Assembly (NCBI GenBank): GCA_002011475.1
Contig: MTNP01000008.1
Location: 4,037 to 68,036, forward strand
Length of the DNA stretch: 64,000 nt
Source: Dehalococcoides sp. JdFR-54
Lineage (GTDB): Bacteria > Chloroflexota > Dehalococcoidia > JdFR-54
Direction of reading: 5' to 3'
Part shown: positions 10,504 through 44,451 of the stretch, piece after piece
Position numbering within the stretch: position 1 is the first letter of the stretch
Layout: the number at the start of each line of letters is the position of its first letter
The notes under the pieces: model-generated
Told to the model about the DNA's origin: nothing
What the model saw: the letters and a program-made list of their open reading frames with translations, nothing else
The model's database searches: none
Made by a program: the position numbers and the translations under genes

Positions 10504-11724
10504 TTAGATAACGCCGGCCGCTCTAAGGGCAGCTATCTTCTCCTCACTATAGCCCAGGAGGTGCCGAAAAACCTCGTCGTTGTGCTCACCCAGTCTGGGC
10601 GCGGTGCTCCGCACCCTGCCGGGCGTGAGGGAAAATTTGCCGATGACGTTGGGCATTTTCACCGGGCCGATGTCCGGGTCCTGAACCTCGATGATGTTCT
10701 CCCGCTCCCAGAATAGAGGGTCCTGGAAGATATCGGCCATATTTTGTACCGGCCCCGCCGGGACCCCAGCGTCATCCAGGATATCCACCACCTCTTTCAA
10801 GGTATGCTCCTTGGTCCACTCCTCAACGATGCGGTTGATCTCCTCCCTATTCTCCGCCCGAGCGCTCTGGCTCACGAATCGGGGGTCGGTGGCCAGTTCC
10901 GGCCTGCCCATGGCCTGGCTCAGGCGCCTGAAAACGGGGTCAGTGCTACAGGTGATGGATACCCAGTGGTCGTCCCTGGATTTCCAGATGCCCAGGGGGG
11001 CAGTGCCAGGGAAATCGTTGCCCGTCCTTTCCTGGAGGATGCCCATCTTGTCCCACAGGGCCGGCTGATATTCCTGAAGCCGAAACAGGCCCTCGTAGAC
11101 CGCCAGGTCGATATACTGCCCCTGCCCCCCACCGATGGTATCCCTATAGTAAAGGGCGAACATGATGGACAGGGCGCCGAATATCCCGGTGATGTAGTCG
11201 GCCAGGGATATGGGCGGGTTTAGGGGCGGGCGATCGGGATACCCGGTAATATAGGTCAACCCACTACGTGCCTGACAGGTCATGCCAAAGCCGGCCTTGT
11301 GTCGGTCCGGGCCGGTCTGCCCATATCCAGAGATGCTAAGCATAATGATGCCGGGGTTCACCTCCTTCAGGTCCTCATAGGCAAGGTTCCACTCCGCCAC
11401 CGTGCCCGGGCGGAAGTTCTCGACCACCACATCAGAGATCTTCGCCAGGTCCTTGATCACCCCCTGCCCCTCACGCCTGCGCATATCAACGGTGATGCTT
11501 TTCTTATTGCGGCCGTTCACCGTCCACCACAGGGATTGCCCCTGGTATTTGGGACTCATCCCTCTCAGGCCATCGCCGACCCCCGGCTGCTCCACTTTGA
11601 TAACCTGGGCCCCGAAATCGCCGAGCAGAGAGCAAGCGAAAGGCGCCGCCAAGACATGGCCTATCTCCAGAACCCTTACCTTGGACAAAGGAAGCTCAGT
11701 GGAATTCCTCTCAACCTGCGCCAT
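10504..11724 (-). CDS. Family III (CaiB/BaiF) CoA-transferase.
   Basis: VRVLEIGHVLAAPFACSLLGDFGAQVIKVEQPG N-terminal signature and length ~405 aa. Start chosen at the second ATG (11724), preceded by GGAGGAGGG. Confidence 0.85.
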   Translation of the reverse strand: MAQVERNSTELPLSKVRVLEIGHVLAAPFACSLLGDFGAQVIKVEQPGVGDGLRGMSPKYQGQSLWWTVNGRNKKSITVDMRRREGQGVIKDLAKISDVVVENFRPGTVAEWNLAYEDLKEVNPGIIMLSISGYGQTGPDRHKAGFGMTCQARSGLTYITGYPDRPPLNPPISLADYITGIFGALSIMFALYYRDTIGGGQGQYIDLAVYEGLFRLQEYQPALWDKMGILQERTGNDFPGTAPLGIWKSRDDHWVSITCSTDPVFRRLSQAMGRPELATDPRFVSQSARAENREEINRIVEEWTKEHTLKEVVDILDDAGVPAGPVQNMADIFQDPLFWERENIIEVQDPDIGPVKMPNVIGKFSLTPGRVRSTAPRLGEHNDEVFRHLLGYSEEKIAALRAAGVI

Positions 11725-11975
11725 AGGACATCCCTCCTCCGCCGACTTGGAATGGCTTGTCATCGGCTTTCGGTCTGGGCAAAAGTATAGAGGCTCACCG
11801 CCCCTGCGTCAAGTTTGTGCGTCGTCCTCCTCTATATTGTTGACAATCTTGCCTTCAATGGCTATACTCTTCATTGGCGTGCGTCCTATCCCCTGAATGC
11901 CGTTGGCGAGAAGGAAACCCTGACTGCGCCTTCAAAGGCGGAAAGTTTGTTGCACATCATAGGGAAGGAGGGGAA

Positions 11976-12899
11976 ATGAACAGGTCGAAATCGATCACCA
12001 TCATAGAGGTGGGGCCCCGGGATGGATTCCAGAACCTGGCCGATGAGATTCCCACTGCCGACAAGATCAGGATTGTGGACCTCCTAGCTGATACTGGTCT
12101 GAAGATGATCGAGACTTCATCCTTTGTTCATCCCAAATGGATACCCCAACTGAAGGATGCCGCCGAGGTATTTGCCGGCATCCATAAGAAGCCCGGCGTC
12201 TCCTATAGCGCCTTGATCCCCAATGAGAAGGGCCTGGACAGGGCCATCGAGTGTGGGGTGGGCGAGGTGGTGTTCGTGGTCGCTGCCAGCAATAGCCTGA
12301 ACCGCGCCAATCAGAACATGACCACGGAGGAATCATTGGCCTACCTGGAACCTATTGCCCAAAAGTCGAGACGACACGGCATTCGGGTGCGCGGCATTAT
12401 CGCTGCCTCCTTCGGCTGCTCCTACGAAGGAGAGGTTCCCATCAAGCAGGTCATCGACATCGGAAAGGAGCTGCGGCGGATGGGTGCCTTCGAGATCTCC
12501 CTGGCGGATTCCTTCGGGATGGCCCACCCTCGCCAGGTTAGGCAGGTGGTATCCCGGTTTCTGAGGGAAATAAACGATGTGAGCGTGGGCGTCCATTTCC
12601 ACGATACCAAGGGCACAGGCACGGCCAACGCTTACGCCGCCTTTGAGGCTGGGGTCAATGTCTTCGAGTCCTCCATCGCCGGCCTGGGGGGCTGTCCCTA
12701 TGCCTTAGGCGCCCCCGGAAATGTGGCCACAGAGAGCCTGGTTTACATGTTCCATAAGATGGGCATAGACTCCGGCATAGACCTAGACAAATTGTTGGCC
12801 TGTGCCGAAACGGTTAAGGAGATCGTGGGCTGGCCCCCCAAGACCTGGTCCTCCGAGAGAACCCGCTGGAACTGGAAGGAAGCCTCGGTGCCGGCGTAA
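11976..12899 (+). CDS. HMG-CoA-lyase-like (HMGL family) acyl-CoA lyase; could be a citramalyl-CoA-type lyase.
   Basis: ITIIEVGPRDGFQN (DRE-TIM metallolyase motif), HFHDTKGTG, GLGGCPYA. ATG at 11976 preceded by GGAAGGAGGGG. Confidence 0.8.
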   Translation: MNRSKSITIIEVGPRDGFQNLADEIPTADKIRIVDLLADTGLKMIETSSFVHPKWIPQLKDAAEVFAGIHKKPGVSYSALIPNEKGLDRAIECGVGEVVFVVAASNSLNRANQNMTTEESLAYLEPIAQKSRRHGIRVRGIIAASFGCSYEGEVPIKQVIDIGKELRRMGAFEISLADSFGMAHPRQVRQVVSRFLREINDVSVGVHFHDTKGTGTANAYAAFEAGVNVFESSIAGLGGCPYALGAPGNVATESLVYMFHKMGIDSGIDLDKLLACAETVKEIVGWPPKTWSSERTRWNWKEASVPA

Positions 12900-12931
12900 C
12901 ATCCCCTGCCAGTTTATGGAAAGGATAGGCC

Positions 12932-13816
12932 ATGCGAGCCCAAGTGACCCTCACCCCCACTGAGTCGAAGAAACTGATTGCCAAGGCGGTGGCGAGGATG
13001 GACATAGTGAAGCGGGCCTTGGCACAGGGAACAGTAGTTCTGCACCCCAGCAGTAGCACCTACTTCATCGTAGAAGAGATCACCAGGGATAAGCCCAAGA
13101 CCAATACCTGGGTCTGCGGCATCGTAGCCCCCAAGGGTACCTGCGTAGAGATGGGCTCTGCCATAGGCAGTCATTCCATAGTCTCAAAAGTGACCCAGGA
13201 GAGTGCCACTACCAATCCCAAGGCTTTCCGGCATTCCTGGGTCATTAGAGGCGGCGAAATGACCACGGGTATACCCCTCGGCTCCCTCCTGGAGGATTTA
13301 GGCCCTGAGGATGTCTATATAAAGGGCGTGAATGCCCTAGATACAGAGGGCAACGTCGGCGTCCTCATCGGCAATCCCATAGAGGGAGGCACTATCGGAC
13401 AGGTAATGGCTGCCTCCAGGGGAAAGGGATTTAACGTTATCTTCCCAGTGGGCCTGGAGAAGTTGATCCCCATTCCCGTCAAAGAGGCGGCTAAGGAGGC
13501 CCTGAGAACGAGCTATGAGTACGCCATGGGTATAGGCTGTGCCCTATTCCCCTGCCAAGGGATAACGGTGACCGAGCCCAAGGCCATCGAGATCCTCAGC
13601 GGCGCCACGGCCATCCCTATTTCGGCGGGCGGTTTAGGCGGGGCGGAGGGATCGGTAACGCTGGTCATTAGGGGGGATGAAGAGCAAGTTCGTAAGGCCA
13701 TTGATTATGCGGAGCAGTCCAAAGGGGCCAGATTACCCCAGGTGCGCACCTTTAATTGCCATCAGTGCGACGTCTCATTCTGTTACTTCCCGGTGGGCGA
13801 TAAGCCTTGGGCCTGA
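12932..13816 (+). CDS. Conserved hypothetical protein (294 aa) with a Cys-rich C-terminus (CHQCDVSFCYFP); no family recognised.
   Basis: Long ORF with consistent codon usage sitting inside the metabolic gene cluster; two internal Cys-containing loops (GTCVEMG, GIGCALFPCQG). Confidence 0.5.
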   Translation: MRAQVTLTPTESKKLIAKAVARMDIVKRALAQGTVVLHPSSSTYFIVEEITRDKPKTNTWVCGIVAPKGTCVEMGSAIGSHSIVSKVTQESATTNPKAFRHSWVIRGGEMTTGIPLGSLLEDLGPEDVYIKGVNALDTEGNVGVLIGNPIEGGTIGQVMAASRGKGFNVIFPVGLEKLIPIPVKEAAKEALRTSYEYAMGIGCALFPCQGITVTEPKAIEILSGATAIPISAGGLGGAEGSVTLVIRGDEEQVRKAIDYAEQSKGARLPQVRTFNCHQCDVSFCYFPVGDKPWA

Positions 13817-14017
13817 GTGGGCGACTCCCAAGGGATGGGATAGTGACCAGGATGTCCCAAAGCATGTGCGGTGGCCGCCCAGGTCGGCGCCGAGAAGATG
13901 CTAGAGTTAATGCCTGAGCCTGCTGCAAAGTGAGGCAGTGGCAAATAGCTTGGCCTTTTTACGCATACCTCAGGAGTTCCACGTCTCCACACGACTTCAA
14001 GGGGAGGAATTAGAGTA

Positions 14018-14947
14018 ATGCAGGAGCTTCTGGTGAGCAGGAAAACCCTTTATGACCTGATGTACAATTCCATCGTCATGGCAGCTACTATTATGCCCTC
14101 CGATGTCAAAGACGAAATCCTGAGCCTGATAGCCGAGGAGACCAACGAGATCGCCCGATTGCATCTGGAGTCTACCATGCGGAACTGCATTGAGCTGGGG
14201 GAGAAGGAGGACAGGCTACTTTGTCCCGATACCGGAACTCCCCTATATTATGTAAGGGTAGGCAATAACGTGAGGATAGAGGGAGGATTCTCCGCCCTAT
14301 ATGATGAGAGCAAGAAGGCGGTCAGCGATGCCACGGCCAATGCCAAGCTGAGACCTAACATGGTTCATCCCATAACCCGCAAGAGCACCGGGAACAATAT
14401 TGGCCACTACGTGCCCAGGGTGGAGATAAGGTTCGACCCGGATATAGATTATATGGACGTTATCGCCGTTCCCAAAGGAGGCGGCTCTGAGATCTTCGGC
14501 ACCTTTTATCGCGTGATGTACCCCGCCGACGGCAGAAAGGGGATAATGAAGTTCATCCTAGATTGTATCAAGGAGTCCACCTATGCCGGAAAGACCTGCC
14601 CGCCCAATGTGCTCGGCATCGGCATCGGGGGCACCGCGGACATCTGCATGAAGATAGCCAAGGAAGCGGCGGTGCTGCGACCCATCGGCAGTCGCCACCC
14701 CGACAAGGATATAGCTGACCTGGAGCTGGAAGTGGTGGAACTCATAAAAACGGCAGGGGCAGGGCCCATGGGGATGGGTGGTACCTCCGGGGTGCTGGAT
14801 GTACACATCGAATACGCGGTTACCCATACCGCCGGATTGCCCATAGCCTTTAATGCCCAGTGTGCCCTCAGCCGGCGGAAGGTGGCCCGCATTACCCCGG
14901 ACGGGCAAATCACCTACAGCGATTTCCCCCAATGGGAATACAGGTAA
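14018..14947 (+). CDS. Class I (Fe-S) fumarate hydratase / tartrate dehydratase alpha-type subunit; candidate mesaconase.
   Basis: N-terminal catalytic domain motifs of FumA/TtdA (CPDTGTP, KTCPPNVLGIGIGGT). Strong SD AAGGGGAGG. Confidence 0.85.
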   Translation: MQELLVSRKTLYDLMYNSIVMAATIMPSDVKDEILSLIAEETNEIARLHLESTMRNCIELGEKEDRLLCPDTGTPLYYVRVGNNVRIEGGFSALYDESKKAVSDATANAKLRPNMVHPITRKSTGNNIGHYVPRVEIRFDPDIDYMDVIAVPKGGGSEIFGTFYRVMYPADGRKGIMKFILDCIKESTYAGKTCPPNVLGIGIGGTADICMKIAKEAAVLRPIGSRHPDKDIADLELEVVELIKTAGAGPMGMGGTSGVLDVHIEYAVTHTAGLPIAFNAQCALSRRKVARITPDGQITYSDFPQWEYR

Positions 14948-14979
14948 TAGGTCTTGTCCCAGCCAGTGAGTAGGAGGAA

Positions 14980-15609
14980 TTGAACATGGCCACGAAAAGA
15001 CTGACCATCCCCCTCTCCCAAGAAGACGTCCGGGGGCTAAAGGTCGGCGACATTGTCTACTTGGATGGGCTCATCTACACGGCGAGGTCGCTGTTTCAGT
15101 TACAGGTCGTGGAGCAGGACATACTGCCGCCCATCGATTTCAGCAGACTGAATGTAATGGTTCATATAGGCCCGGTGATGAAGAAGGTGGGAGATAGCTG
15201 GATGCCAGTGAGCATGGCCCCCACGTCCAGCATTCGCTTTGAGAAGCTGGGGCCCACCATAATCAAGAAGCTGGGCGTCAGGGCCTTCATCGGCAAGACT
15301 ACCATGGGCGAGAAGACCATGCAGGCCATGAAAGAGTACGGCTGTGTCCACCTCTCTGTAGTTGGGGTGATGGGCAACATCTTCGCCAAACAGGTCAAGC
15401 GAGTGGTGGAGGTGCATAACCTGGAGTTGGGCATCCCTGAAGCCACCTGGGTGATGGAAGTGGAAAACGCCGGGCCCTTCATCGTGGATATTGATACTCA
15501 CGGCAACAACCTGTTCCACCAAGTAAATGCCGAGGTGGAGAAAAGATTCGACCAAGTCTATGAGAAGTATGGGCTCAAGGACTTTGCCTATACCAACGTG
15601 GGTGCCTGA
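14980..15609 (+). CDS. Class I fumarate hydratase / tartrate dehydratase beta-type subunit.
   Basis: 209 aa resembling the TtdB/FumA C-terminal domain; immediately downstream of the alpha subunit; SD AGGAGG. Confidence 0.8.
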   Translation: MNMATKRLTIPLSQEDVRGLKVGDIVYLDGLIYTARSLFQLQVVEQDILPPIDFSRLNVMVHIGPVMKKVGDSWMPVSMAPTSSIRFEKLGPTIIKKLGVRAFIGKTTMGEKTMQAMKEYGCVHLSVVGVMGNIFAKQVKRVVEVHNLELGIPEATWVMEVENAGPFIVDIDTHGNNLFHQVNAEVEKRFDQVYEKYGLKDFAYTNVGA

Positions 15610-15645
15610 GCTAGATCAGAAGAACTCACCGAGTTTTCCCGGAAG

Positions 15646-15846
15646 ATGAGCTACAAGAAGCTGGGATTCGCCTTCTGTGCCAGGGTGACCCATGAGGCCC
15701 TGGGAGAGCTGATAGAGAGGTTCCATAAGTTTTCAGCACCGGTTTTCTCCGAAAGCCGAAGGCGTGAGATCATAGCCAAGGTGAGGTCGGTGGAGGCCGA
15801 GGCGGCGATCTCCAATTTGACCAGTTTGTTCGTAAAAGAAACCTGA
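15646..15846 (+). CDS. Small hypothetical protein (66 aa).
   Basis: ORF with cluster-like codon usage and no overlap; weak RBS. Confidence 0.25.
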   Translation: MSYKKLGFAFCARVTHEALGELIERFHKFSAPVFSESRRREIIAKVRSVEAEAAISNLTSLFVKET

Positions 15847-15864
15847 AAGGAGGCAAGGAGCGTC

Positions 15865-16296
15865 ATGGCCGAAGCTGCCATCTGGAACCTGAAAGAGGTC
15901 TTAGAGCGGAGCCGCGTCTCTGATGAGGATGTCAAGGGAAAGGGCTTTGCCGAGTCCATCAGCAGAACCTTTCTGGTACAGAGCAAGTACCTTTCCGTAG
16001 TACTGGTACAGGCACAGCCTCAGACTTCCCCTTACTTGCACACCCATCAGGACCACGACGAGGTCATCCTCGTCCTGGAGGGGGAGGGCGAGTTCGTTTC
16101 TGGAGACATCACCAAGAAGGTCGGGCCTGGAGACCTCATCTATGCCCCCGCGGGCACGGTACACGCGCCCAACTTTCCTGGTAAAGCGGTGAGGCTAGCC
16201 ATCTACGCGCCCCACTTCGACCCCGACAGACCCGATAGGGTGGAAGTGAAGCCTTCGGGCTGGATGCGTGAAGGCAAGGCCGCCTCACCGGATTAG
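15865..16296 (+). CDS. Cupin-domain protein.
   Basis: 143 aa with a cupin_2-like core (HTHQDHDEVILVLEGEGEF...PAGTVHAP); SD AAAGGAGG. Confidence 0.6.
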   Translation: MAEAAIWNLKEVLERSRVSDEDVKGKGFAESISRTFLVQSKYLSVVLVQAQPQTSPYLHTHQDHDEVILVLEGEGEFVSGDITKKVGPGDLIYAPAGTVHAPNFPGKAVRLAIYAPHFDPDRPDRVEVKPSGWMREGKAASPD

Positions 16297-16352
16297 AAGA
16301 TGCCTCCTCCCCCTTTGTCTAGGACATAGAAGCTTGGCTGAGGGAATGCAAT

Positions 16353-17621
16353 ATGGCTAGAATCTATGAGTATCAAGGAAAGCAATTGCTCAAAGCTGTA
16401 GGGATACCTGTTCCTCAGGGGGATGTGGCTGCCACCCCTGAAGAGGTCCGCAGGATTGCAGCAAGCATAGGAAAGCCTGTGGCCATCAAGGCTCAGATAT
16501 GGGTCACGGGGCGTTTCAAGGCGGGCGGCATAAGATTCGCCAGCGACTCTGAAGAGGCGGAGAAAATCGCTCAGGAATTCCTGGGAAGTAGGATCAAGGG
16601 CTTGCTTGTAGAACAGGTGCTCGTTGAAGAGAAACTGGATGTGGATCGTGAGTTCTATGTCGGCGTAATCGTGAACGACTCCTACAAGGTTAGGGCCCCG
16701 GTCTTGGTGTTCTGTAGCGAGGGTGGGGTGGATGTGGAGGAGGTGGCCGCCCGAAATCCGGAACGGGTAGCTACCCTGCCCGTCGATTACCTCAAGGGGG
16801 TGGGGCCCTCGGAGGCGCAAGAGCTAATAGCCAAGATGTCCCTAGAAGCTGCCCTGTCCTCTGAGCTGGTCAAGGTCATCTCCGGCCTCTACCAGGCTTT
16901 CCAGAAGTACGATGCCCGGGTGGCCGAGATCAACCCCCTGGTCTTCACCAAAGACGGCCGTATCTATGCAGCGGATTGCCGGTTCACCCTCGATGATAAC
17001 GCCCTCTTCCGCCACCCCGAGTTCGGCATTAAGGTCCCTCGGGACATGGATCGAGAGCCCACCGAACTCGAGGAGATCGCCTGGCAGATAGAAGAAACCG
17101 ACTACCGGGGAACGGGCTACTTCACTCAGCTAGTCCCCGAGGTCAAAGAGGAGGGCTACGTCGGCTTCCACGGCATAGGCGGGGGGGCAGCCATGCTGGC
17201 GGCTAGCGCCCTGCTAACCCGCGGGCTGAAGATAGCTGACTATGCAGATACCAGCGGCGACCCACCCGCCAGCAAGGTGTATAAGGTGATCAAATGCATC
17301 TTGGCACTGCCCGTCGATGGCTATGTATTGATGGGCTCGGTCCTCGCCAACCAAGAACAATGGCATCATGCCCATGCCATCGTTAAAGCCTTGAGGGAGG
17401 AGCTGAAGGATAGGCCCGGATTCCCCGTGCTGCTCCTCGTCGCCGGGAACAAGGAAAACGAATCCCACCAGATCATCAGAGATGGCCTGAAGGACCTGCC
17501 CATACGCTGGGAACTCTACGGGCGGGATTACATCTACAAGACCGATTTCATAGCCGACAGGGCGGCGGACTTGGTGAAGGCCTATCTGGAAGAGAAACAC
17601 CACAAAGCAGCAGGCAGGTGA
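16353..17621 (+). CDS. Succinyl-CoA-synthetase-like acid--CoA ligase (ADP-forming), beta subunit (ATP-grasp), copy 1.
   Basis: MARIYEYQGKQLLK...GIPVP N-terminus, ATP-grasp and C-terminal CoA-ligase domain, as in SucC / MtkA / CcsA. Confidence 0.8.
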   Translation: MARIYEYQGKQLLKAVGIPVPQGDVAATPEEVRRIAASIGKPVAIKAQIWVTGRFKAGGIRFASDSEEAEKIAQEFLGSRIKGLLVEQVLVEEKLDVDREFYVGVIVNDSYKVRAPVLVFCSEGGVDVEEVAARNPERVATLPVDYLKGVGPSEAQELIAKMSLEAALSSELVKVISGLYQAFQKYDARVAEINPLVFTKDGRIYAADCRFTLDDNALFRHPEFGIKVPRDMDREPTELEEIAWQIEETDYRGTGYFTQLVPEVKEEGYVGFHGIGGGAAMLAASALLTRGLKIADYADTSGDPPASKVYKVIKCILALPVDGYVLMGSVLANQEQWHHAHAIVKALREELKDRPGFPVLLLVAGNKENESHQIIRDGLKDLPIRWELYGRDYIYKTDFIADRAADLVKAYLEEKHHKAAGR

Positions 17622-17627
17622 ATCATC

Positions 17628-17966
17628 ATGGCCCAAGGAAAACTGGAGTTCGAGGCTCGAACCTCCAAGATCACCATCGATTACGACCGGTGTGAGCCGG
17701 CCACAAAGAACACCCCCAACCCCTCCTGCGGCTTCGCCTGTATTAAGGCCGACCGCTGCTACGGCCGAAATGTCCTGAAAATAGAGGGGAATAGACCTGT
17801 GCTTGCCAGTCCGAACCCGGAGGAGATAAGGCGTTTGTGCAACGAGTGTCTGGCCTGCGAATATGACTGCTGGCTCTATGGGGCGGGCTGTATCCACATC
17901 GAGATCCCCTTCCCCGACCTCGACGCCTATAAAGAGAAGGTCAGGACAGGAAAAAGAGGTGAGTAG
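17628..17966 (+). CDS. Small Cys-rich (ferredoxin-like) protein inserted between ligase beta and alpha genes.
   Basis: 112 aa, translationally coupled on both sides, with CNECLACEYDC and upstream C..C..C pattern. Confidence 0.5.
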   Translation: MAQGKLEFEARTSKITIDYDRCEPATKNTPNPSCGFACIKADRCYGRNVLKIEGNRPVLASPNPEEIRRLCNECLACEYDCWLYGAGCIHIEIPFPDLDAYKEKVRTGKRGE

Positions 17967-17968
17967 AG

Positions 17969-18868: not shown

Positions 18869-18881
18869 ATGGGAGATAGCC

Positions 18882-19838: not shown

Positions 19839-19855
19839 CCGGAACTCTGCCAGAA

Positions 19856-21861: not shown

Positions 21862-21886
21862 CCGCACTGCGTGAGGAGACAGGCCT

Positions 21887-23990: not shown

Positions 23991-24010
23991 GTATCGTTTA
24001 TGAATAAACC

Positions 24011-32024: not shown

Positions 32025-32087
32025 GGGGACGACACCTAGAACGCCCTTCGTTGCACGTTTCGATGCGAAGTGGGATTGCCTGGGAAG

Positions 32088-34000: not shown

Positions 34001-34004
34001 CAAG

Positions 34005-34418: not shown

Positions 34419-34447
34419 CCCAGAGACCAAGAGGACAGGCAGAGCTT

Positions 34448-35881: not shown

Positions 35882-35911
35882 AGTATTTCCATCAGTAGAA
35901 GGGAGGGTTCC

Positions 35912-37291: not shown

Positions 37292-37432
37292 CACCGCTGG
37301 CACCTGACCACCCTCCCTTACCGCCGGGAATCCGATTTTATGCCAAGTAAGAATGGTGGAACGACGGCTGAAAGGGGCTCTTCGTGGCACGGGCTCTTTG
37401 TCTGACTTGCCTCTGGGCGTAGGAGCGAAGGC

Positions 37433-38839
37433 ATGGGAGTCATCTTACTTATAGACTTTGGCAGCACTTATACCAAAATAAGGGCGGTAGACCTGGAAAA
37501 GGAAGAGGTGGTAGGGAGCTGCCAGGCGCCCAGCACGGTCGACACAGATATGACCATTGGGCTACAGGCGGCCTTCGATGCTCTCCTTGCTCAGACGGGC
37601 GTCGGCAACACCGATATAGAGGGCAAGCTTGCTTGTAGCAGTGCTGCCGGCGGCTTGCGCCTGGTGGCCAGTGGCCTGGTCCCCCGGCTGACCACTGAGG
37701 CGGCCAAGAGAGCTGCCCTCGGCGCCGGCGCCAAGGTCATAGGGGTCTATTCCTACCAGCTCACCCCCAAGGAGATAGCCGAGTTGGAGCAGAAGCGCCC
37801 CGACCTGGTGCTGCTGGTGGGTGGCACCGACGGCGGGAATACAGAGGTCATCCTCCACAATGCCAGGATGCTGGCCAACTCCGATCTGGTCTGCCCCATA
37901 GTGGTTGCCGGCAACAAAGTGGCCGCTGAGGAGGTCGAGCACATCCTCCACACCGCTGGCAAGTATGTGGCGGTGGCCGCTAATGTGATGCCAGAGGTCA
38001 GTCAGCTCAACGTAGAGCCGACTCGCGCCGTCATCAGAGAGATGTTTATGAGGCGCATCACCCATGGGAAGGGCCTGAACAAAGCCGAGAGACTCGTGGG
38101 CAGCATTATTATGCCCACTCCCATGGCTGTGCTCCGCGGCGCCGCCTTGCTGGCTCAAGGCACCCCAGAAGAGGCGGGGCTGGGCGACCTCATCGTTGTC
38201 GATGTTGGCGGCGCCACCACCGATGTGGATTCCCTGACGGAAGGCAACCCCACCCAGCCCGGCGTAGTGGCAAAGGGCTTGCCCGAACCCTACGCCAAGC
38301 GGACGGTGGAGGGTGACCTGGGAATTCGATACAGCGCACCCCATATCCTGGAAATCGCCGGCGAGAAGCGCCTGCGAGAGAACCTGATGGCAAGGGACGA
38401 GGGGCTCGCTGGCGACCTGGACCTAGGCGCCAAGCTGTCCTACTTGTCCGACCATATCGATTTTGTCCCCCAGACCCAGCATGACTCCCACCTCGATGTC
38501 GCCCTGGCCCGCAGCTCGGTGGAGATCGCCATGCAAAGACACGCCGGAGTGATAGAGACCTGCTATCTGCCATCGGGCACTGTCTACCTCCAGCATGGCA
38601 AGGACCTGACCCAGGTTAAGCGTGTCATCGGGACCGGCGGCATATTTAGCTACGGGCAGCACCCCCGCTGGATACTGGAGGGAACGCTATACAGCCAGCG
38701 GGAACCCCTGTCCCTCAGGCCCAAGGCGCCAGAATTCTTCATAGATGAACGATACCTGCTCTATGCCATAGGCTTGCTGGCCGAGATCGCCCCTGAGAAA
38801 GCCCTCCGGATAATGAAAAAACACCTGAGAAAGGTATAA
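37433..38839 (+). CDS. glmL: GlmL/MutL-type glutamate-mutase-associated chaperone (ASKHA-fold ATPase).
   Basis: VILLIDFGSTYTKIRAVD N-terminus and ~468 aa, as in component L of clostridial glm operons. Confidence 0.65.
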   Translation: MGVILLIDFGSTYTKIRAVDLEKEEVVGSCQAPSTVDTDMTIGLQAAFDALLAQTGVGNTDIEGKLACSSAAGGLRLVASGLVPRLTTEAAKRAALGAGAKVIGVYSYQLTPKEIAELEQKRPDLVLLVGGTDGGNTEVILHNARMLANSDLVCPIVVAGNKVAAEEVEHILHTAGKYVAVAANVMPEVSQLNVEPTRAVIREMFMRRITHGKGLNKAERLVGSIIMPTPMAVLRGAALLAQGTPEEAGLGDLIVVDVGGATTDVDSLTEGNPTQPGVVAKGLPEPYAKRTVEGDLGIRYSAPHILEIAGEKRLRENLMARDEGLAGDLDLGAKLSYLSDHIDFVPQTQHDSHLDVALARSSVEIAMQRHAGVIETCYLPSGTVYLQHGKDLTQVKRVIGTGGIFSYGQHPRWILEGTLYSQREPLSLRPKAPEFFIDERYLLYAIGLLAEIAPEKALRIMKKHLRKV

Positions 38840-38860
38840 GCCCGGTAGAGAGGAGGGTCA

Positions 38861-40387
38861 ATGGTTATAGGCGACATAGCCATCAGGAACGCCAGGAACT
38901 ACCCCAGCAAAATAGCCCTGGTCTTCGGGAATGACAGGTACACCTTCAAGGAATTCAACGACAGGGTCAATCGCCTGACCAGGGCTCTTCTAGACTCGGG
39001 GGTGGAACGGGGCGGGAGGATAGCCATTCTGGCCGAGAACTGCCCTCAATATGCCGAGGCCTACTTCGCCACGGCCAAAGGGGGGTTGGTCATCCTGCCC
39101 TTGAATGCCAGGCTGGCGGGGCCGGAGCTCGTCTATATCATAAACGATGCGCAGGTCAGCACCCTGCTCGTAGAAAAGGAATTCTTAGGGCTCATCGATT
39201 CCATATGGTCTCAGCTTGAGACGGTCGCGAATCTCATAACCATAGGGGAGGCGGGGGAGAATAGCTACGAGCTCTTGATCTCCCGGTATCCCCCAGAGGA
39301 GCCTGACATCCGAGTGGATGAAGACGACCTGGCTTGCCTTATGTATACCTCGGGCACCACTGGCAGGCCCAAAGGGGCCATGCTCACCCACCGAAATCTC
39401 ATCGCCAACGCCCTCAATCCCATATTGGCCTTTCAGTTCCGCCATGACGATATAACCCTGCACCTGGCCGCCCTCTATCATGTCGCCGCCCAGTGGCCGT
39501 TGATGAGCCACTTCTACCTTGGGGCCACCAACGTTCTATTGAAGAAGTTCGAGCCGCTGGCTACCCTGAAAGTCGTCGAGACGGAGAGGATTACCACCCT
39601 GAATGCAGTCCCGGTCATGATATCTGGTCTCCTCGACCAGCTGGATAAGGAAGAGCATGACCTATCCAGCGCAAGCTGGATAGGCTATGGGGCTTCCCCA
39701 ATGCCCCTGCCATTGATAAAGAGAGCCCTACATAGATTCGGCCAAGTGATGGTTCAGCTATACGGTCTAACGGAGAGCGGCGGCATAGTCACTTGGCTCC
39801 CCCAGGAGGACCATATCATCGAGGGGCCAGAGGAGAAATTGAGGCGGCTCACGTCCTGTGGCAAGGAGATTATTAATGTGGAGGTGAGGGTGGTGGATGA
39901 GGCCGGCCAGGATGTGGCTCCAGGACAAGTGGGCGAGATAATAGTAAGGGGTGACAATGTAATGAAGGGCTATTGGGCCCAGCCCGAGGCCACGGCGGAA
40001 ACCCTGAAGGGAGGATATCTCCATACCGGCGACCTGGCCACTGTAGATGAAGAGGGATATATCTACATTGTGGATAGGAAAAAGGACATGATCATCAGCG
40101 GAGGGGAGAACATCTACTCCCGCGAGGTGGAGGAGGCCATCTTTGCCCACCCCGCGGTGCGGGATGTGGCCGTCATCGGCGTCCCCGATGAAAAATGGGG
40201 CGAGGCGGTCAAGGCAGTAGTGGTCCTCAAAGAAGGCGCCACAGCGACTGAGGAGGAGATAATAGAATTCTGTCGGCAACGCATTGCCAGCTATAAGAAG
40301 CCGAAGTCTGTGGACTTCGTCCCCGAACTGCCCAGGAATGCTACGGGCAAGGTATTGAAGACACTGCTGCGGGAGCAATATGGCTAG
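38861..40387 (+). CDS. AMP-forming acyl-CoA synthetase / acid--CoA ligase.
   Basis: YTSGTTGRPKG AMP-binding motif; GEIIVRGDNVMKGY; C-terminal domain with invariant Lys (YKKPKSV). Confidence 0.88.
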   Translation: MVIGDIAIRNARNYPSKIALVFGNDRYTFKEFNDRVNRLTRALLDSGVERGGRIAILAENCPQYAEAYFATAKGGLVILPLNARLAGPELVYIINDAQVSTLLVEKEFLGLIDSIWSQLETVANLITIGEAGENSYELLISRYPPEEPDIRVDEDDLACLMYTSGTTGRPKGAMLTHRNLIANALNPILAFQFRHDDITLHLAALYHVAAQWPLMSHFYLGATNVLLKKFEPLATLKVVETERITTLNAVPVMISGLLDQLDKEEHDLSSASWIGYGASPMPLPLIKRALHRFGQVMVQLYGLTESGGIVTWLPQEDHIIEGPEEKLRRLTSCGKEIINVEVRVVDEAGQDVAPGQVGEIIVRGDNVMKGYWAQPEATAETLKGGYLHTGDLATVDEEGYIYIVDRKKDMIISGGENIYSREVEEAIFAHPAVRDVAVIGVPDEKWGEAVKAVVVLKEGATATEEEIIEFCRQRIASYKKPKSVDFVPELPRNATGKVLKTLLREQYG

Positions 40388-40422
40388 GCCATCGCGATTA
40401 CCAACCCCAGTAAACGGCAGTC

Positions 40423-41688
40423 ATGCTTAGGCCCAGGTTCTTCTACGGCTGGGCGATTGCGGGGGTGTTGGTGATCATTGGCTTTGTACTGGCCACCCCC
40501 TTCAACTCCACCCTCTCCATCTTCCTCAAACCCATGGGCGAGGAACTGGGCTGGTCGCGCACTGCCATCTCTGGGGCGGTGGCCCTGGGCTCCCTCCTGG
40601 CCGCTGCCATCAGTTTCTGCATCGGTCCTCTCCTCGACCGCTGGGGCTCGCGGGTCGCCATTTCCGCAGCGGTGGCTCTCATGGGGCTGGCCGTTATGGG
40701 CCTATCGCGGTGCACCGCCCTGTGGCACCTCTACCTTTTCCTGGGGCTCGCCCGGGCGCTGGCCAACGGCGTCCTCGATATCGGCATCGTGGTCACCAGC
40801 TCCAACTGGTTTATCCGCTGGCGAGGACGGGTGCTGGGTATGGCCCAACTGGGCATCCGGGTTGGTCAGGCGCTATTTCCCCTGGTGGCTGCCCTCCTCA
40901 TCGCCTCTCTGGACTGGCGCAATGCCTGGGTAGGCGTGGGGGGGCTGGCCATTTTTCTGGCCTTTCTGCCCTCCGTCATTTTCCTGCGTCGCCGCCCCGA
41001 AGACCACAACCTCACCCCCGATGGCCTGCCTCCGCCCAGCCCGACCCAAGGGGACGTAACAGCTACCACGGCGACCGAGCCAATGTGGACTGCCCGCCAG
41101 GCGGCAGGCACCAGCACCTTCTGGTTGCTGACTGCAGCCTTCAGCCTGTTCTTCCTAGTCGCGGCGGCCATGAACCTGCACCAGTACCCCTACCTGACTG
41201 ACATTGGCATCGACCCGGGGGTGGCCGTGGGGGCACTGAGCACCTTCTTTATCAGCGCCGCCGTGGGGGCCTTGCTCCTGGGCTCCCTGGCCGACCGTTT
41301 CCCGGTCAAGGTCCTCCTGGGCACCGTCCAGGCCGGCGCCGCCCTCGGCATCTTTATGCTCATCCTCACCAGGGGGCCGGCCATGCTCTACGCATATGCC
41401 GTTTTCTACGGCATATGCTTCGGAGGCTCCTTTCCCCTTTTCTCCCTGGCCTTCGTGAGGCACTACGGCCGGGCCTCGGCAGGCAGCATACGGGGCCTTT
41501 ACTGGCCGCTATGCATGGTCTTCAACGCCATCGGCCCGGTCTTCGCCGGCTGGATGTTCGACCGGATGGGAAACTACAATCTGGTCTTCACCATATTCTG
41601 CATCATGTTCCTGGTTGGCAGCACCCTGGTCTGGCTCTCCCGCGCCCCCACGTCCTTCCCATCGCCATCCCCTTCCCCCCAGAATTGA
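40423..41688 (+). CDS. MFS transporter (oxalate/formate-antiporter-like organic-acid carrier).
   Basis: 12-TM profile; motif A GPLLDRWGSRV. Confidence 0.78.
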   Translation: MLRPRFFYGWAIAGVLVIIGFVLATPFNSTLSIFLKPMGEELGWSRTAISGAVALGSLLAAAISFCIGPLLDRWGSRVAISAAVALMGLAVMGLSRCTALWHLYLFLGLARALANGVLDIGIVVTSSNWFIRWRGRVLGMAQLGIRVGQALFPLVAALLIASLDWRNAWVGVGGLAIFLAFLPSVIFLRRRPEDHNLTPDGLPPPSPTQGDVTATTATEPMWTARQAAGTSTFWLLTAAFSLFFLVAAAMNLHQYPYLTDIGIDPGVAVGALSTFFISAAVGALLLGSLADRFPVKVLLGTVQAGAALGIFMLILTRGPAMLYAYAVFYGICFGGSFPLFSLAFVRHYGRASAGSIRGLYWPLCMVFNAIGPVFAGWMFDRMGNYNLVFTIFCIMFLVGSTLVWLSRAPTSFPSPSPSPQN

Positions 41689-41738
41689 CGGCCTGGGTGA
41701 TTTCCTCTACACTGCCATCAAAATAGCGTAACAGTGAC

Positions 41739-42983
41739 ATGGCCACACCGGTCGCCGCGGGTCGGGTCTATTATGGCTGGATAATAGTGGCTGCCTGTCT
41801 CCTCCTCACCGCCACTGCCTTCGGCATACAGTACTGCTACGGCATATTCTTCAAGCCGCTTCAACAGGACTTCGGCTGGAGCCGAGCCACCACTGCCTCG
41901 GTAATGTCCTTTCATATGATCTTCTATGGCATCTCGGCCTTCATCAGCGGCTGGTGCACCGACAGATATGGGCCCCGAATGACAGTGGCCGCCGGGGGCC
42001 TGCTCATGGGCCTGGGGCTGGTATTGAGCAGCCAGATATCCGCCGTTTGGCAGCTATACCTCCTCTACAGTTTGCCTCTAGCCTTCGGCATTAGCACCTG
42101 CTGGTATCCTATAGTTACCACCCTCAGCCGATGGTTCAGCGGCAGAAGGGGGCTCGCCCTCGGCACAACCCGGGTTGGCCACGGGCTGGGCATCCTGGGC
42201 ATCTCGCCCCTGGTCAATTATCTGATCACCATGTTCGATTGGCGTCTCTCCTACATAATTGTTGGGCTCATCGCCTGGGCAGTTATCGTCCCCACCGCCC
42301 TGCTCTTGAAGAAGGAGCCCAGAGAGACCACCTATGCCCCCCTCCCCACCGATATGGCCCCATCCGTTCCCCAGTTTTCCCTGCGAGATGCCCTGAGAAC
42401 CCCGAACCTATGGTTTCTGATTTTTATGCAGCTCCTGTGCAGCGTCTGTTTCCGCATGGTCATGGTGCACCTGGTGCCCTATGCCACCGATGTCGGGATA
42501 TCAGCGGCGACGGCGTCGCTGGTCCTCGGCCTTATTGGTGGCGCCAACATCATAGGCGGGGTATTGATGGGTATCGCCCAGGATAGGTTCGGCGCCAGAG
42601 CCAGCTTCATCATCTCCGTGTTATTACAGTCCATATCCCTCTTCTGGCTTACCACCCTTCGCACCACCGCTGCCTTCTTCGGCTTTGCCTTGCTCTTCGG
42701 GTTCACCCTTGGGGGGTATATGGTTCAGTTCTATGGGCTCACCGCGGGCCTGTTCGGGCTGCGCTCCGTAGGTGCCATCAATGGGGCGCTGGGGACAGGG
42801 GCCGGGATCGGCGGCGCCCTGGGCCCCTTTTCAGCAGGCTATTTCTTCGACCGTACTGCCAGCTACTCCGTCCCCTTCCTTATCGCCGCCGGGGCCCTTC
42901 TGTTAGCTGGATTGCTGGCCATCTCCCTGAGGTCGCCAAGTAGGTCCCAGCACCAGCCCCCCAATGCAGTCCCGGGGGTCTGA
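41739..42983 (+). CDS. MFS transporter, second paralogue.
   Basis: 12-TM profile; GWCTDRYGPRM motif A. Confidence 0.78.
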   Translation: MATPVAAGRVYYGWIIVAACLLLTATAFGIQYCYGIFFKPLQQDFGWSRATTASVMSFHMIFYGISAFISGWCTDRYGPRMTVAAGGLLMGLGLVLSSQISAVWQLYLLYSLPLAFGISTCWYPIVTTLSRWFSGRRGLALGTTRVGHGLGILGISPLVNYLITMFDWRLSYIIVGLIAWAVIVPTALLLKKEPRETTYAPLPTDMAPSVPQFSLRDALRTPNLWFLIFMQLLCSVCFRMVMVHLVPYATDVGISAATASLVLGLIGGANIIGGVLMGIAQDRFGARASFIISVLLQSISLFWLTTLRTTAAFFGFALLFGFTLGGYMVQFYGLTAGLFGLRSVGAINGALGTGAGIGGALGPFSAGYFFDRTASYSVPFLIAAGALLLAGLLAISLRSPSRSQHQPPNAVPGV

Positions 42984-43134
42984 TCCCGTTTGTTGATTGG
43001 GGTCCAGAGGGGCGAAGCCCCTCTGTGGGTTTCCTCAGTAGGCATTGACGCTGGAAGCACTGTGCTTATCTGGACATCCCAGGGATGATATAATAGGCAG
43101 CGTAGGCAATTACGCTCTAAGGGGGACATAGCCG

Positions 43135-44451
43135 ATGACGGAACAAGAATTGCTGGACATTGCCCGGGACTATTGCTTCCGTGCTCGAGTACAGAAGAGG
43201 CAGTTCATAGGCCCAGTGCTTGCCTCTGGGAAAGGCTCCATAGTCGTCGATGTCAATGGTAAGGAGTATATCGACTTCGTCGCCGGGCAGATGTGCGCCG
43301 CTTTGGGCCACAATCATCCCAGGATTGTGGAGTCCATCCATAGAAGCTGTGAGACCATGATCCATTCCAATATGACGCATTTTAACGTGGAGGAGATCAA
43401 GCTAGCCAAGCGTCTGGGCGAGGTGTTGCCGTCCCCTCTGAAGAAGTCTCTTTTTCTGCTGACGGGCAGCGACGCCAATGAGGCTGCCATTGTCATCGCC
43501 AAAAAGTATACCAATGGCTTCGAGGTAGCCAGCCCTCATGTCAGTTTCCATGGCATGTCGGATGCGGCCAGGTCTATCACCTTCGGCGTGTGGCACGCTG
43601 GCTATGGTCCCCTCTTGCCCGGTTCTTACGCTATAATGGCCCCTTACTGCTATCGTTGTCCCGTGGACCACACCTTCCCCGAGTGCCATTATGCTTGCCT
43701 CAAGGCAGGGTTTGAGATTCTGGATGCGGAGTCTGTGGGGGCTCTGGCAGCCGTGATAACCGAGCCTCTGTTCAGTGCCGGCGGCGTCATCGACCCTCCA
43801 TCGGGTTGGCTTAAAGAACTGAAAAAGATGTGCCAAGACAGAGGCATGTTGCTCATCGTGGACGAGGCTCAAACGGGCCTGGCCAAGCTGGGGAGTATGT
43901 TCGCCTTCGAGCAGGAGGGCATTGTACCTGACATCGTCTCCATCTCCAAGCATTTCGGCGGCGAACTGACCATTAGCGCCGTGGCCACCAGTCCTGAGAT
44001 CGAAGAGGTGGTTGCCGGCCGGGAGTTTGTGTTGGGTCACTCCCATGCTGCTGATCCTATGGCCTGTGCCGCTGCCATCGTTAGCTTAGATATAATCGAA
44101 GATGAGGGTTTGGTGGACAAGGCCAAGGAAATGGGTAAGCGCATCAGGGACAGCCTCCTGGAGATGGCAAAGCGCTATGAAATAATAGGCGATGTCCGTG
44201 GCCGAGGGGTGCTCCAGGGTATAGAACTGGTGAAGGACCGGGACAGCAAAGTGCCAGCCAACGAGGCGGGGCCTGAAGTAGAGCGCCGCTGTCTAGAGGA
44301 TGGGCTCCTGATCACCGTGCGGGGCGCCCAGGGGCGAACCAACGTTCTGCGGCTGGTGGTGCCCTTTACCACCACCCAGGAGCAGATGGACCGGGCCTTC
44401 GACATCTTGGAGAGCGCCATTAAGAGCCTGAGCCCAACAGTCGTGTCCTGA
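43135..44451 (+). CDS. Class-III (omega) PLP aminotransferase.
   Basis: AT-III fold with GSDANEAA, DEAQTGL and SKHFGG (PLP Lys) motifs. SD AGGGGGAC. Confidence 0.85.
   Translation: MTEQELLDIARDYCFRARVQKRQFIGPVLASGKGSIVVDVNGKEYIDFVAGQMCAALGHNHPRIVESIHRSCETMIHSNMTHFNVEEIKLAKRLGEVLPSPLKKSLFLLTGSDANEAAIVIAKKYTNGFEVASPHVSFHGMSDAARSITFGVWHAGYGPLLPGSYAIMAPYCYRCPVDHTFPECHYACLKAGFEILDAESVGALAAVITEPLFSAGGVIDPPSGWLKELKKMCQDRGMLLIVDEAQTGLAKLGSMFAFEQEGIVPDIVSISKHFGGELTISAVATSPEIEEVVAGREFVLGHSHAADPMACAAAIVSLDIIEDEGLVDKAKEMGKRIRDSLLEMAKRYEIIGDVRGRGVLQGIELVKDRDSKVPANEAGPEVERRCLEDGLLITVRGAQGRTNVLRLVVPFTTTQEQMDRAFDILESAIKSLSPTVVS

Follow-up and report, generated by a model that had tools for sequence, protein, structure and literature searches.

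To our knowledge, few carbon-skeleton rearrangements catalyzed by adenosylcobalamin (AdoCbl)-dependent mutases are known, and glutamate mutase is the only characterized member of its fold family. The clostridial glutamate mutase operon (glmS/mutS-glmL/mutL-glmE/mutE-mal) encodes a small S subunit with the B12-binding DxHxxG motif, an E subunit of about 480 aa, the GlmL/MutL protein and methylaspartase (mal). In the 64-kb stretch of Dehalococcoides sp. JdFR-54 contig MTNP01000008.1 analyzed here as a whole (the window), two Glm-type pairs, GlmS1-GlmE1 and GlmS2-GlmE2, have the same subunit layout and a GlmL/MutL gene, but their partners are a PrpD-like protein, an acyl-CoA ligase and CoA-transferases instead of mal, mesaconase and the citramalate lyase complex. 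A second described system, for branched C5-dicarboxylates, is the itaconate-methylsuccinate cluster of pseudomonads and Cupriavidus (Ict, Ich, Ccl, methylsuccinyl-CoA dehydrogenase, and an MmgE/PrpD isomerase). Like the window, it has an MmgE/PrpD protein, a hot-dog hydratase, a CitE-type lyase, and enzymes for CoA activation, but it has no B12 mutase (PMC12290011). An earlier note on this DNA had read positions 10504-44451 as a methylaspartate/mesaconate/citramalate-like supercluster lacking methylaspartase. We propose, with a probability that we put at roughly one-half, that the Glm-type AdoCbl mutases and the PrpD-like enzyme process non-amino acids, and that the region does not encode a methylaspartate pathway short of one gene. 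The genes at the center of this proposal are the following:

32070-32543 (+), GlmS1 (PF02310), and 32540-34000 (+), GlmE1 (PF06368)
34005-34418 (+), GlmS2, and 34448-35881 (+), GlmE2, a second Glm-type AdoCbl mutase
35912-37291 (+), MmgE/PrpD-family protein of the IDS-epimerase/cis-aconitate-decarboxylase branch (PF03972, PF19305), here called PrpD-like
37433-38839 (+), GlmL/MutL accessory (reactivase-type) protein (PF13941, 569 bits; NCBIfam accessory_GlmL, 616 versus a cut-off of 475)
38861-40387 (+), AMP-forming acyl-CoA ligase (AMP-binding and AMP-binding_C; PRK06187 subfamily, 577 versus 476)
40423-41688 (+) and 41739-42983 (+), two MFS transporters (MFS_1)

The two GlmE paralogs are 35% identical to each other. 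They align without gaps to C. cochlearium GlmE (PDB IDs 6H9E and 1CCW) over residues 1 to 204 and are about 40% identical to it over the full length (phmmer). With this protein as the reference, active sites were compared through a seven-residue signature (positions 66, 100, 149, 150, 171, 177, and 181):

Canonical GlmE, R66 R100 R149 H150 E171 Y177 Y181 (RRRHEYY)
GlmE1, R66 R100 R149 S150 I171 L177 M181 (RRRSILM)
GlmE2, Q66 R100 T149 N150 L171 D177 H181 (QRTNLDH)

According to the 1CCW and 1I9C structures and mutagenesis by the Marsh laboratory, Arg66, Arg100, and Arg149 are the "arginine claw" that binds the two substrate carboxylates in GlmE, Glu171 is the partner of the amino group of the substrate, and the pocket is lined by Tyr177 and Tyr181; a literature search on GlmE active-site residues returned nothing relevant, and the invariance of the residues was measured here. 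In a MAFFT alignment of 238 homologs gathered with both window paralogs as queries, RRRHEYY is present in 105 of 105 canonical sequences, each at most 42% identical to the window proteins. Both paralogs, unlike clostridial GlmE, have replaced Glu171, Tyr177, Tyr181, and His150; GlmE1 retains all three arginines, whereas GlmE2 has also lost Arg66 and Arg149 and keeps only Arg100 of the substrate-binding set. The GlmE2 clade comprises about 80 proteins (43 to 73% identity), mostly from Chloroflexota metagenome-assembled genomes (MAGs), and conserves only R100 and a [D/E/Q]177-H181 pair of the signature positions. The GlmE1 clade is small and from Chloroflexota (44 to 53% identity); its members keep RRR and never have E171 or the tyrosines. 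Position 171 of GlmE2 is a leucine by MAFFT and a gap by tblastn-based mapping, with no glutamate in either. Judging from these residues, the window paralogs probably do not bind L-glutamate or make 3-methylaspartate.

The enzymes nevertheless look functional, because the DxHxxG motif (DIHHLG in GlmS1 and DCHVVG in GlmS2), the conserved core residues (R100, E330, and 34 others, present in all GlmE clades) and a GlmL equivalog are retained. PF06368 matches the two GlmE paralogs with 420 and 388 bits, and one GlmL copy, identical to a protein on contig DUEO01000008.1 of another Dehalococcoidia MAG (assembly GCA_011170395.1), serves both pairs. We consider both GlmS/GlmE pairs to be probably functional AdoCbl carbon-skeleton mutases with remodeled pockets. 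That the divergent paralogs are catalytically dead or non-enzymatic, e.g., regulatory or B12-storage proteins, would fit the replacement of most substrate-contact residues, yet it seems most improbable given that the open reading frames (ORFs) are intact, that R100, E330, and the other core residues persist alongside DxHxxG, that the clades are widely conserved with fixed signatures of their own (D/E177-H181 for GlmE2 and RRR for GlmE1), and that most such loci carry a dedicated GlmL accessory protein.

Genomic context also separates the two types of GlmE. We examined 160 further loci from genome and metagenome collections, typing GlmE by its signature and searching each locus for methylaspartase; a canonical GlmE, P0140, in an operon glmS-mutL-glmE-mal served as the positive control. 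A scan with a narrower GlmE alignment, whose motif also occurs in canonical GlmE, gave the canonical control loci (at least 79 of them Bacillota among the matches listed) and one divergent locus. With at least 3 kb of flanking sequence on both sides, methylaspartase accompanied RRRHEYY GlmE in 69 of 70 loci and divergent GlmE in 0 of 31. When loci of at least 8 kb were considered (86 canonical and 32 divergent), homologs were counted as follows:

Methylaspartase, 83 canonical and 1 divergent
Class-I hydro-lyase alpha subunit (FumA-like), 50 canonical and 0 divergent
CitE, 46 canonical and 0 divergent
Family III CoA-transferase, 0 canonical and 11 divergent
PrpD-like, 0 canonical and 9 divergent

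Acyl-CoA dehydrogenases were likewise found at 5 of 34 divergent loci and at none of the 86 canonical ones. The sole non-canonical signature adjoining mal, RRRTECY (locus L107, 10001-11425), has methylaspartase 274 bp away and retains Glu171; it would seem that a true glutamate mutase is marked by Glu171 rather than by His150 or Tyr177. Compared with glutamate mutase (EC 5.4.99.1), the window pairs thus have the fold and the DxHxxG motif but lack the substrate-binding set and the association with methylaspartase, and the designation "glutamate mutase" in the earlier note is not supported.

Its observation that the window holds no methylaspartase, on the other hand, is confirmed: no ORF scanned in the 64 kb matches the MAAL Pfam models, and tblastn with the bona fide methylaspartase of the control operon against the whole window gave a best E value of 0.74. 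As methylaspartase-free loci occur across the divergent GlmE clades, the absence is a property of these mutase clades and not a gap in one genome. Since the mutases are probably not making 3-methylaspartate, no methylaspartase is needed; the enzyme is probably not "missing," as no methylaspartate is expected.

What recurs with GlmE2 is a unit consisting of GlmS2, GlmE2, and the PrpD-like protein, which in most cases is accompanied by GlmL, an enzyme of CoA activation, and a carboxylate transporter. In the window, it spans 34005-42983, with GlmS1-GlmE1 ahead of it under the same promoter region. No relative above 47% identity came out of a metagenome scan that used GlmE2 as its only query, and conservation among close relatives rests on three loci obtained by exact-protein look-ups (in brackets, identity to GlmE2 after the locus name and to the corresponding window protein after other names):

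L172 (73%): CitE-like fragment (77%), GlmS, GlmE, PrpD-like (65%), GlmL, AzlCD, AMP-ligase (41%), carboxyltransferase
L171 (71%): sigma-54 activator, acyl-CoA dehydrogenase, NDP-forming acyl-CoA synthetase, GlmS, GlmE, PrpD-like (63%), TRAP DctPQ
L005 (68%): two family III CoA-transferases, IclR, PrpD-family gene, GlmS, GlmE, GlmL

In L172 only, the CitE-like fragment lies directly upstream of the GlmS-GlmE2-like genes. L171 has an acyl-CoA dehydrogenase beside the module, as does the itaconate cluster, whereas the window encodes none. Around more distant GlmE2-like loci, we found genes for acyl-CoA dehydrogenases, enoyl-CoA hydratases, electron transfer flavoprotein, and family III CoA-transferases.

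GlmE1-like genes stand alone with one GlmS, in two kinds of context. One holds two genes of the mesaconyl-CoA-hydratase family (MC_hydratase), a family III CoA-transferase, an HpcH lyase, MutL, IclR, and TctC; the other (L008) holds three family III CoA-transferases, a 389-aa double hot-dog protein (38% identical to that of the window), MutL, and a 2-hydroxyacid dehydrogenase. Because GlmE1-like genes occur elsewhere on their own with GlmS, GlmS1E1 and GlmS2E2 are independent mutases, in tandem by chance here and sharing one GlmL. Tandem duplicate GlmE genes are also seen in other clades (L154, L155, and L097, two copies each). At least six GlmE active-site signature groups were seen in all, mostly in Chloroflexota and other uncultured anaerobes; three of the loci read as follows:

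L136 (RRRLASY, 9974-11458): MutL, CoA-transferases, GlmE, GlmS, enoyl-CoA hydratase, PrpD-family gene, short-chain dehydrogenase/reductase (SDR)
L111 (SRFGSSY, 10001-11449): GlmE, MutL, FAD_binding_2 flavoprotein
L163 (RRRSPWY, 9896-11932): fused GlmE-GlmS

The further groups without methylaspartase (L091 to L170) bear RRRSPWY, RRRLASY, SR[LFM]GSSY, GRRYSSM, and RRLSLYY, and the RRRSPWY group often has many copies per data set.

The PrpD-like protein has both MmgE_PrpD domains, N- and C-terminal. Against structures in the PDB, it scores 133 bits with IDS epimerase, 107 bits with cis-aconitate decarboxylase (CAD), and 33 bits with true PrpD, and it keeps D93, T97, H103, and K272 of human CAD. 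All characterized MmgE/PrpD members act on C2/C3-substituted 1,4-dicarboxylates, with protonation or deprotonation at C2, and the member from the itaconate cluster is a methylsuccinate epimerase working on the free acid (PMC12290011). The isomerases of that study come for 96% from Pseudomonadota (PMC12290011), and the window protein, which has a leucine at CAD H159, is likened to the itaconate-cluster isomerase by family only. The pairing of GlmE2 with this protein is chemically coherent, because the product class of Glm-type mutases is the substrate class of the PrpD family. A Glm-type 1,2-shift would convert a 2-X-glutarate into a 2-X-3-methylsuccinate, the conversion of glutamate to methylaspartate being the case in which X is NH3+.

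As for the mutases themselves, glutarate, 2-hydroxyglutarate, and 2-methyleneglutarate-type acids are candidate substrates of GlmE1, because the arginine claw is kept and the partner of the amino group is lost. Glutamate mutase itself slowly turns 2-hydroxyglutarate into 3-methylmalate. In GlmE2, the loss of two arginines and the gain of D177/H181 suggest that the migrating group probably carries no carboxylate.

Several points weigh against our proposal. Sequence alone yields no substrate for these mutases. Without two of the three arginines, GlmE2 may act on a substrate that is no dicarboxylate, which sits awkwardly with a succinate-type product for its PrpD-like partner. That partner has a leucine at CAD H159 ("gwHp" in IDS epimerase), a position at which histidine is conserved in the aligned CAD and IDS-epimerase structures, and an arginine at K207, so its chemistry may differ from that of characterized members. 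The relatives are at most 73% identical and were viewed over ±10 kb per locus. In addition, methylaspartase could lie elsewhere in the genome, the search having covered the 64-kb window, or be missing from the MAG, and both GlmE paralogs pass, if narrowly, the NCBIfam methylaspartate-mutase equivalog TIGR01503 (415 and 397 versus a cut-off of 390).

The last two points would suit a genuine glutamate-methylaspartate-mesaconate-citramalate route, with deamination by a methylaspartase outside the window or lost from the MAG, or else by the class-III aminotransferase, the 294-aa protein (both described below) or the PrpD-like protein. The GlmL equivalog, the class-I hydro-lyase and CitE-like gene found in the region as in canonical clusters, and the PrpD-like gene occupying the position of mal in clostridial operons would fit it as well. 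We nevertheless hold this route to be very unlikely. The residues missing from the window paralogs (E171, Y177, and Y181 from both, R66 and R149 from GlmE2) are those that are invariant in the canonical sequences, and none of the 31 divergent loci, against nearly all canonical ones, has methylaspartase. The deaminase candidates of the earlier note fare no better: the 294-aa protein has a predicted fold resembling RpiA, eIF2B, and CoA-transferases, and the aminotransferase is absent from all relatives' loci, i.e., not conserved with the mutases, and sits after a terminator-like hairpin.

The profile scans (Pfam and NCBIfam), which covered all sizeable ORFs of the window, found in 10504-44451 every enzyme family that had been listed for it, and added genes for the MmgE/PrpD-family protein, GlmL/MutL, the AMP-forming acyl-CoA ligase, two MFS transporters, a cupin, a Cys-rich 112-aa ORF, and a CDC48_N-like ORF. 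Besides the glm operon, the region comprises the following:

10504-11763 (-), family III (CaiB/Frc-type) CoA-transferase (PF02515, 401 bits), divergent from the HMGL-like gene
11874-12899 (+), HMG-CoA-lyase-family acyl-CoA lyase, HMGL-like (PF00682)
12932-13816 (+), conserved 294-aa protein of no family, with three invariant C-terminal cysteines
14018-14947 (+), alpha subunit, and 14980-15609 (+), beta subunit, of a class-I Fe-S hydro-lyase of the fumarase/tartrate-dehydratase/mesaconase type (PF05681, PF05683; FumAB-like)
15865-16296 (+), small cupin protein (Cupin_2, 50 bits)
16353-17621 (+), divergent SucC-like subunit (ATP-grasp_2 and Citrate_bind)
17628-17966 (+), Cys-rich 112-aa ferredoxin-like ORF (CxxCxxCxxxC motif; no family match)
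17969-18868 (+), SucD-like subunit of the first pair (CoA_binding and Ligase_CoA)
18882-19838 (+), stand-alone CitE/HpcH-type acyl-CoA lyase, CitE-like (PF03328)
19856-21861 (+), near-canonical succinyl-CoA synthetase beta and alpha subunits, the second SucCD-like pair (by NCBIfam scores)
21887-22315 (+), B12-binding small subunit (PF02310), and 22269-23990 (+), large subunit (PF01642), of a split acyl-CoA mutase
24011-25513 (+), family-I CoA-transferase, ScpC-like (AcetylCoA_hydro and AcetylCoA_hyd_C)
25540-26868 (+), family-I CoA-transferase, 4-hydroxybutyrate/butyryl-CoA:acetate-like (AcetylCoA_hydro and AcetylCoA_hyd_C)
27064-28245 (+), 393-aa double hot-dog (R)-hydratase-like protein (FAS1_DH_region, 74 bits; weak MaoC match)
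28252-28575 (-), CDC48_N-like 107-aa ORF (weak CDC48_N match)
28572-30137 (-), TfrB-like Fe-S/CCG subunit (Fer2_3, Fer4, and CCG)
30127-31887 (-), TfrA-like flavoprotein (FAD_binding_2 and Succ_DH_flav_C)
43135-44451 (+), class-III aminotransferase (PF00202), reaching no NCBIfam equivalog cut-off

Intergenic gaps are mostly 2 to 56 bp across the region (4 to 141 bp from GlmS1 to the second MFS gene), a tight spacing that marks the genes as genuine operon-like arrays rather than chance ORFs. Strand switches, spacing, and the sites at which the best promoter-like and terminator-like matches lie suggest five transcription units: the family III CoA-transferase (-); the genes from the HMGL-like lyase to the hot-dog hydratase (11874-28245, +); TfrA, TfrB, and the CDC48_N-like ORF (-); GlmS1 to the second MFS transporter (32070-42983, +); and the aminotransferase. 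Only the positions of best matches were used, the total counts in promoter and terminator scans not exceeding the shuffled expectation. Promoter-like sites were placed at 11812-11784 (minus strand) for the family III CoA-transferase and at 31983-31955 (minus strand) for the TfrAB-like operon, which is divergent from the glm operon; the best such sites between these two operons fall within the intergenic stretch 31955-32024. A terminator-like hairpin (42973-42988) at the end of the second MFS gene precedes the aminotransferase, which is probably a separate unit outside the conserved module. We give about even odds that the region as a whole is best described as at least five transcription units placed side by side, all serving the metabolism of carboxylic acids and CoA thioesters in an anaerobic Dehalococcoidia MAG.

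The comparison of neighborhoods in relatives, which the earlier note had itself named as a way to refute the 34 kb as a unit, shows only GlmS2-GlmE2-PrpD-like (with GlmL) recurring. No homologs of the HMGL-like, 294-aa, FumAB-like, SucCD (either pair), MCM-like (split mutase), ScpC-like, or aminotransferase genes occur within ±10 kb of the 32 to 34 divergent GlmE loci, and those of TfrA, MaoC, and family-I CoA-transferase occur once or twice (TfrA twice, weakly). Conservation as a unit thus does not extend to the 34-kb "supercluster." This non-recurrence speaks for the possibility that there is no common pathway at all, unrelated paralogous operons having piled up in the region by coincidence, as is typical of Dehalococcoidia genomes with many CoA-transferases and hydratases. 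The genes at 16353-26868 would then serve central or succinate metabolism (succinyl-CoA synthetase, succinyl-CoA:acetate CoA-transferase, and possibly citryl- or malyl-CoA synthetase and lyase), and TfrAB and the hydro-lyase would work as fumarate reductase and fumarase of the ordinary kind. Equivalog cut-offs are passed by SucD of the second pair and by the ScpC-like protein, the divergent SucC-like gene has a Citrate_bind match and 149 bits to citryl-CoA synthetase, and CoA-ester gene sets unrelated to these occur elsewhere in the window (a glycyl-radical enzyme, HgdAB-like genes, and three more family III CoA-transferases). We regard such a pile-up as a serious but rather doubtful explanation, because L172 has the CitE-like gene (77%) immediately ahead of its GlmS-GlmE2-PrpD-like module, FAD_binding_2 flavoproteins, double hot-dog proteins, and HpcH lyases recur beside other divergent GlmE genes, TfrAB and the glm operon have one divergent promoter region in common, and the operon includes an acyl-CoA mutase that is not a methylmalonyl-CoA mutase (MCM) and has no role in central metabolism. 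Conversely, and to the detriment of our own proposal, the link between the glm operon and the 11874-28245 operon is inferred from one relative (the CitE-like gene in L172) and from proximity.

This split acyl-CoA mutase had been assigned to the conversion of propionyl-CoA to succinyl-CoA via MCM, a step that its residues do not support. The best PDB match of the large subunit is HcmA (4R3U, 458 bits), ahead of human MCM (360 bits). It has a leucine at MCM Tyr89 and a serine at MCM Arg207 (P. shermanii numbering), the two residues that bind the substrate carboxylate in MCM, and a proline at HcmA Asp117. Where 2-hydroxyisobutyryl-CoA mutase (HCM) has Ile90, Asp117, and Gln208, it thus has Leu, Pro, and Ser, as compared with Phe/Ala/Gln in isobutyryl-CoA mutase (ICM) and Tyr/Ala/Arg in MCM. 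Like HcmAB and ICM, it is split into a large subunit of about 570 aa and a small one of about 140 aa (B12 motif DGHDRG) and has lost Arg207. Among 150 cluster representatives, the MCM signature YAR was counted 46 times and the ICM signature FAQ 7 times, whereas the LPS of the window is unique; the nearest representative is 69% identical and the next are 44 to 48% identical. By these residues, the enzyme is not an MCM but an acyl-CoA mutase without the carboxylate-binding arginine, and LPS points to a rare, uncharacterized acyl-CoA mutase specificity.

The HMGL-like protein is by its scores a good member of the HMG-CoA-lyase family (NCBIfam HMG-CoA lyase subfamily, 362 bits versus a cut-off of 246; PDB HMG-CoA lyases, 258 to 275 bits). 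The family III transferase falls far below all NCBIfam equivalog cut-offs (succinate-glutarate, 256 versus 750; mesaconate, NF041294, 229 versus 700), and so does the CitE-like lyase (CitE, 202 versus 443; RipC, 156 versus 375; malyl-CoA lyase, NF041626, 68 versus 500), which by PDB scores is about equally close to CitE, malyl-CoA lyase, and CLYBL. In the Pfam scan, the 393-aa double hot-dog protein had no match to MC_hydratase (PF19315). The window therefore shares broad families (family III CoA-transferase, hot-dog hydratase, and CitE/HpcH lyase) with the haloarchaeal methylaspartate cycle and the Chloroflexus 3-hydroxypropionate bi-cycle (Mct, Mch, and Mcl) but not their equivalogs. As a lead, the HMGL-like protein and the family III transferase may correspond to the (R)-citramalate CoA-transferase (Sct) and (R)-citramalyl-CoA lyase (Ccl) pair of Chloroflexus.

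The class-I hydro-lyase passes the cut-offs of TIGR00722 and TIGR00723, and its subunits are 30 to 37% identical to the hydro-lyases of canonical methylaspartate clusters. The TfrAB-like enzyme has the domain layout of thiol:fumarate reductase (a flavoprotein and a fused SdhB-like/CCG subunit) with no membrane anchor, and its best NCBIfam equivalogs stay below the cut-offs (TfrA, 521 versus 718; TfrB, 255 versus 385). The first SucC-like/SucD-like pair is below both the SucC and SucD equivalog cut-offs, whereas the second passes that of SucD (378 versus 336) and not that of SucC (341 versus 370). The ScpC equivalog is passed by the first family-I CoA-transferase (555 versus 500), while the second one scores 235 against 675. 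In the PDB, the first SucC-like subunit matches Thermus succinyl-CoA synthetase (SCS) beta with 232 bits and citryl-CoA synthetase with 149 bits. A reading of the SucC-like/CitE-like pair as citryl-CoA synthetase and lyase was considered and found weakly supported by these two scores.

Taken as a whole, the region carries a high density of enzymes for dicarboxylates and CoA esters, with Glm-type B12 mutases beside hydratase, lyase, and CoA-transferase families and no methylaspartase. This much of the original pathway reading stands, whereas the glutamate mutase, MCM, and deaminase assignments and the single unit do not. Within our proposal of non-amino acid substrates, the substrate class, the order of the steps, and the links to the 11874-28245 operon beyond the CitE-like gene are what we infer from observed family memberships, active-site substitutions, methylaspartase absence, and conserved synteny. 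An imported non-amino acid would undergo the Glm-type 1,2-shift from a glutarate-type to a 3-methylsuccinate-type backbone, and the MmgE/PrpD-family enzyme would act on the C2/C3-substituted succinate product by epimerization, dehydration, or decarboxylation. The AMP-ligase or the CoA-transferases would turn the product into a CoA thioester, which the hot-dog hydratase would hydrate and the CitE-like or HMGL-like lyase would cleave. The TfrAB-like flavoenzyme may introduce or remove a C=C bond, of the methylsuccinate/mesaconate type, and the enoate so formed may be a substrate for hydration by the class-I hydro-lyase; these two enzymes may stand in for the ammonia elimination and mesaconase of the classical pathway.

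More tentatively, we speculate that GlmS1E1 and GlmS2E2 have new AdoCbl mutase activities on non-amino acids and form, with the PrpD-like and TfrAB-like enzymes, the hydro-lyase, and the lyases, a nitrogen-free analog of the methylaspartate pathway, the Met_asp_mut_E family holding a large uncharacterized radiation. A dehydrogenase or dehydratase would there replace ammonia elimination, and candidate reactions include glutarate to methylsuccinate, 2-hydroxyglutarate to 3-methylmalate, and the rearrangement of a 2-methyleneglutarate-type substrate. If such rearrangements exist, the reaction repertoire of B12 enzymes would grow, and uncultured anaerobic Chloroflexota would have a route to degrade linear or branched dicarboxylates. 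Automated annotation labels all these proteins "methylaspartate mutase subunit E," and a metabolic reconstruction built on that label would predict, wrongly, glutamate fermentation or a methylaspartate cycle; the combination of RRRHEYY and adjacency to mal offers a simple filter between true glutamate mutases and look-alikes. The narrower interest of the region lies in its three atypical AdoCbl mutases and in the Met_asp_mut_E radiation with remodeled active sites. In keeping with the view that the configuration had not been described, we found no description of the divergent GlmE clades or of the region in the literature searched, a limited collection.

Other genes of the region deserve mention. 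For the 294-aa protein, structure modeling gives an RpiA/eIF2B/CoA-transferase-like fold with a small alpha/beta domain after it, and not a lyase. Its family has more than 1,500 homologs at an E value of at most 0.001, with 58 to 75% identity among the 120 matches listed; no Pfam or NCBIfam model matches it, and the invariant cysteines are C276, C279, and C284. Homologs (L173, 2000-2884; L174, 10001-10894) travel with family III CoA-transferase and acyl-CoA lyase genes or with PrpD-like genes. Its identification with the unannotated 307-aa gene after mal in a canonical operon was rejected, as the two do not match. The Cys-rich 112-aa ORF is separated by 6 and 2 bp from the SucC-like and SucD-like genes; a ferredoxin-like partner would be unusual for an ADP-forming CoA ligase. 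The CDC48_N-like ORF overlaps the TfrB stop codon by 4 bp.

Downstream of the region, a URO-D/MtaA-like methyltransferase-family gene (44640-45758, -) is convergent to the aminotransferase, and positions 46344-62608 hold an IlvD/Edd dehydratase, a LarA_N (2-hydroxyacid racemase-like) gene, an SDR, a second TRAP system, two HGD-D (2-hydroxyacyl-CoA dehydratase) subunits, and three tandem family III CoA-transferases. The ORFs scanned in the window include no gene for a dehydratase activator. Upstream, a PFL2-family glycyl-radical enzyme (6076-8537, +) is split over two reading frames, the ORF at 6076-6492 covering positions 3 to 103 of the PFL-like profile and that at 6588-8537 positions 153 to 647, which points to a frameshift or pseudogene, if not to a fault in the assembly. 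Hydroxyproline dehydratase is the best equivalog of this enzyme, far under the cut-off. The enzyme is preceded by a TRAP transporter (2885-6002, +) and followed by an intact activase (8628-9542, +).

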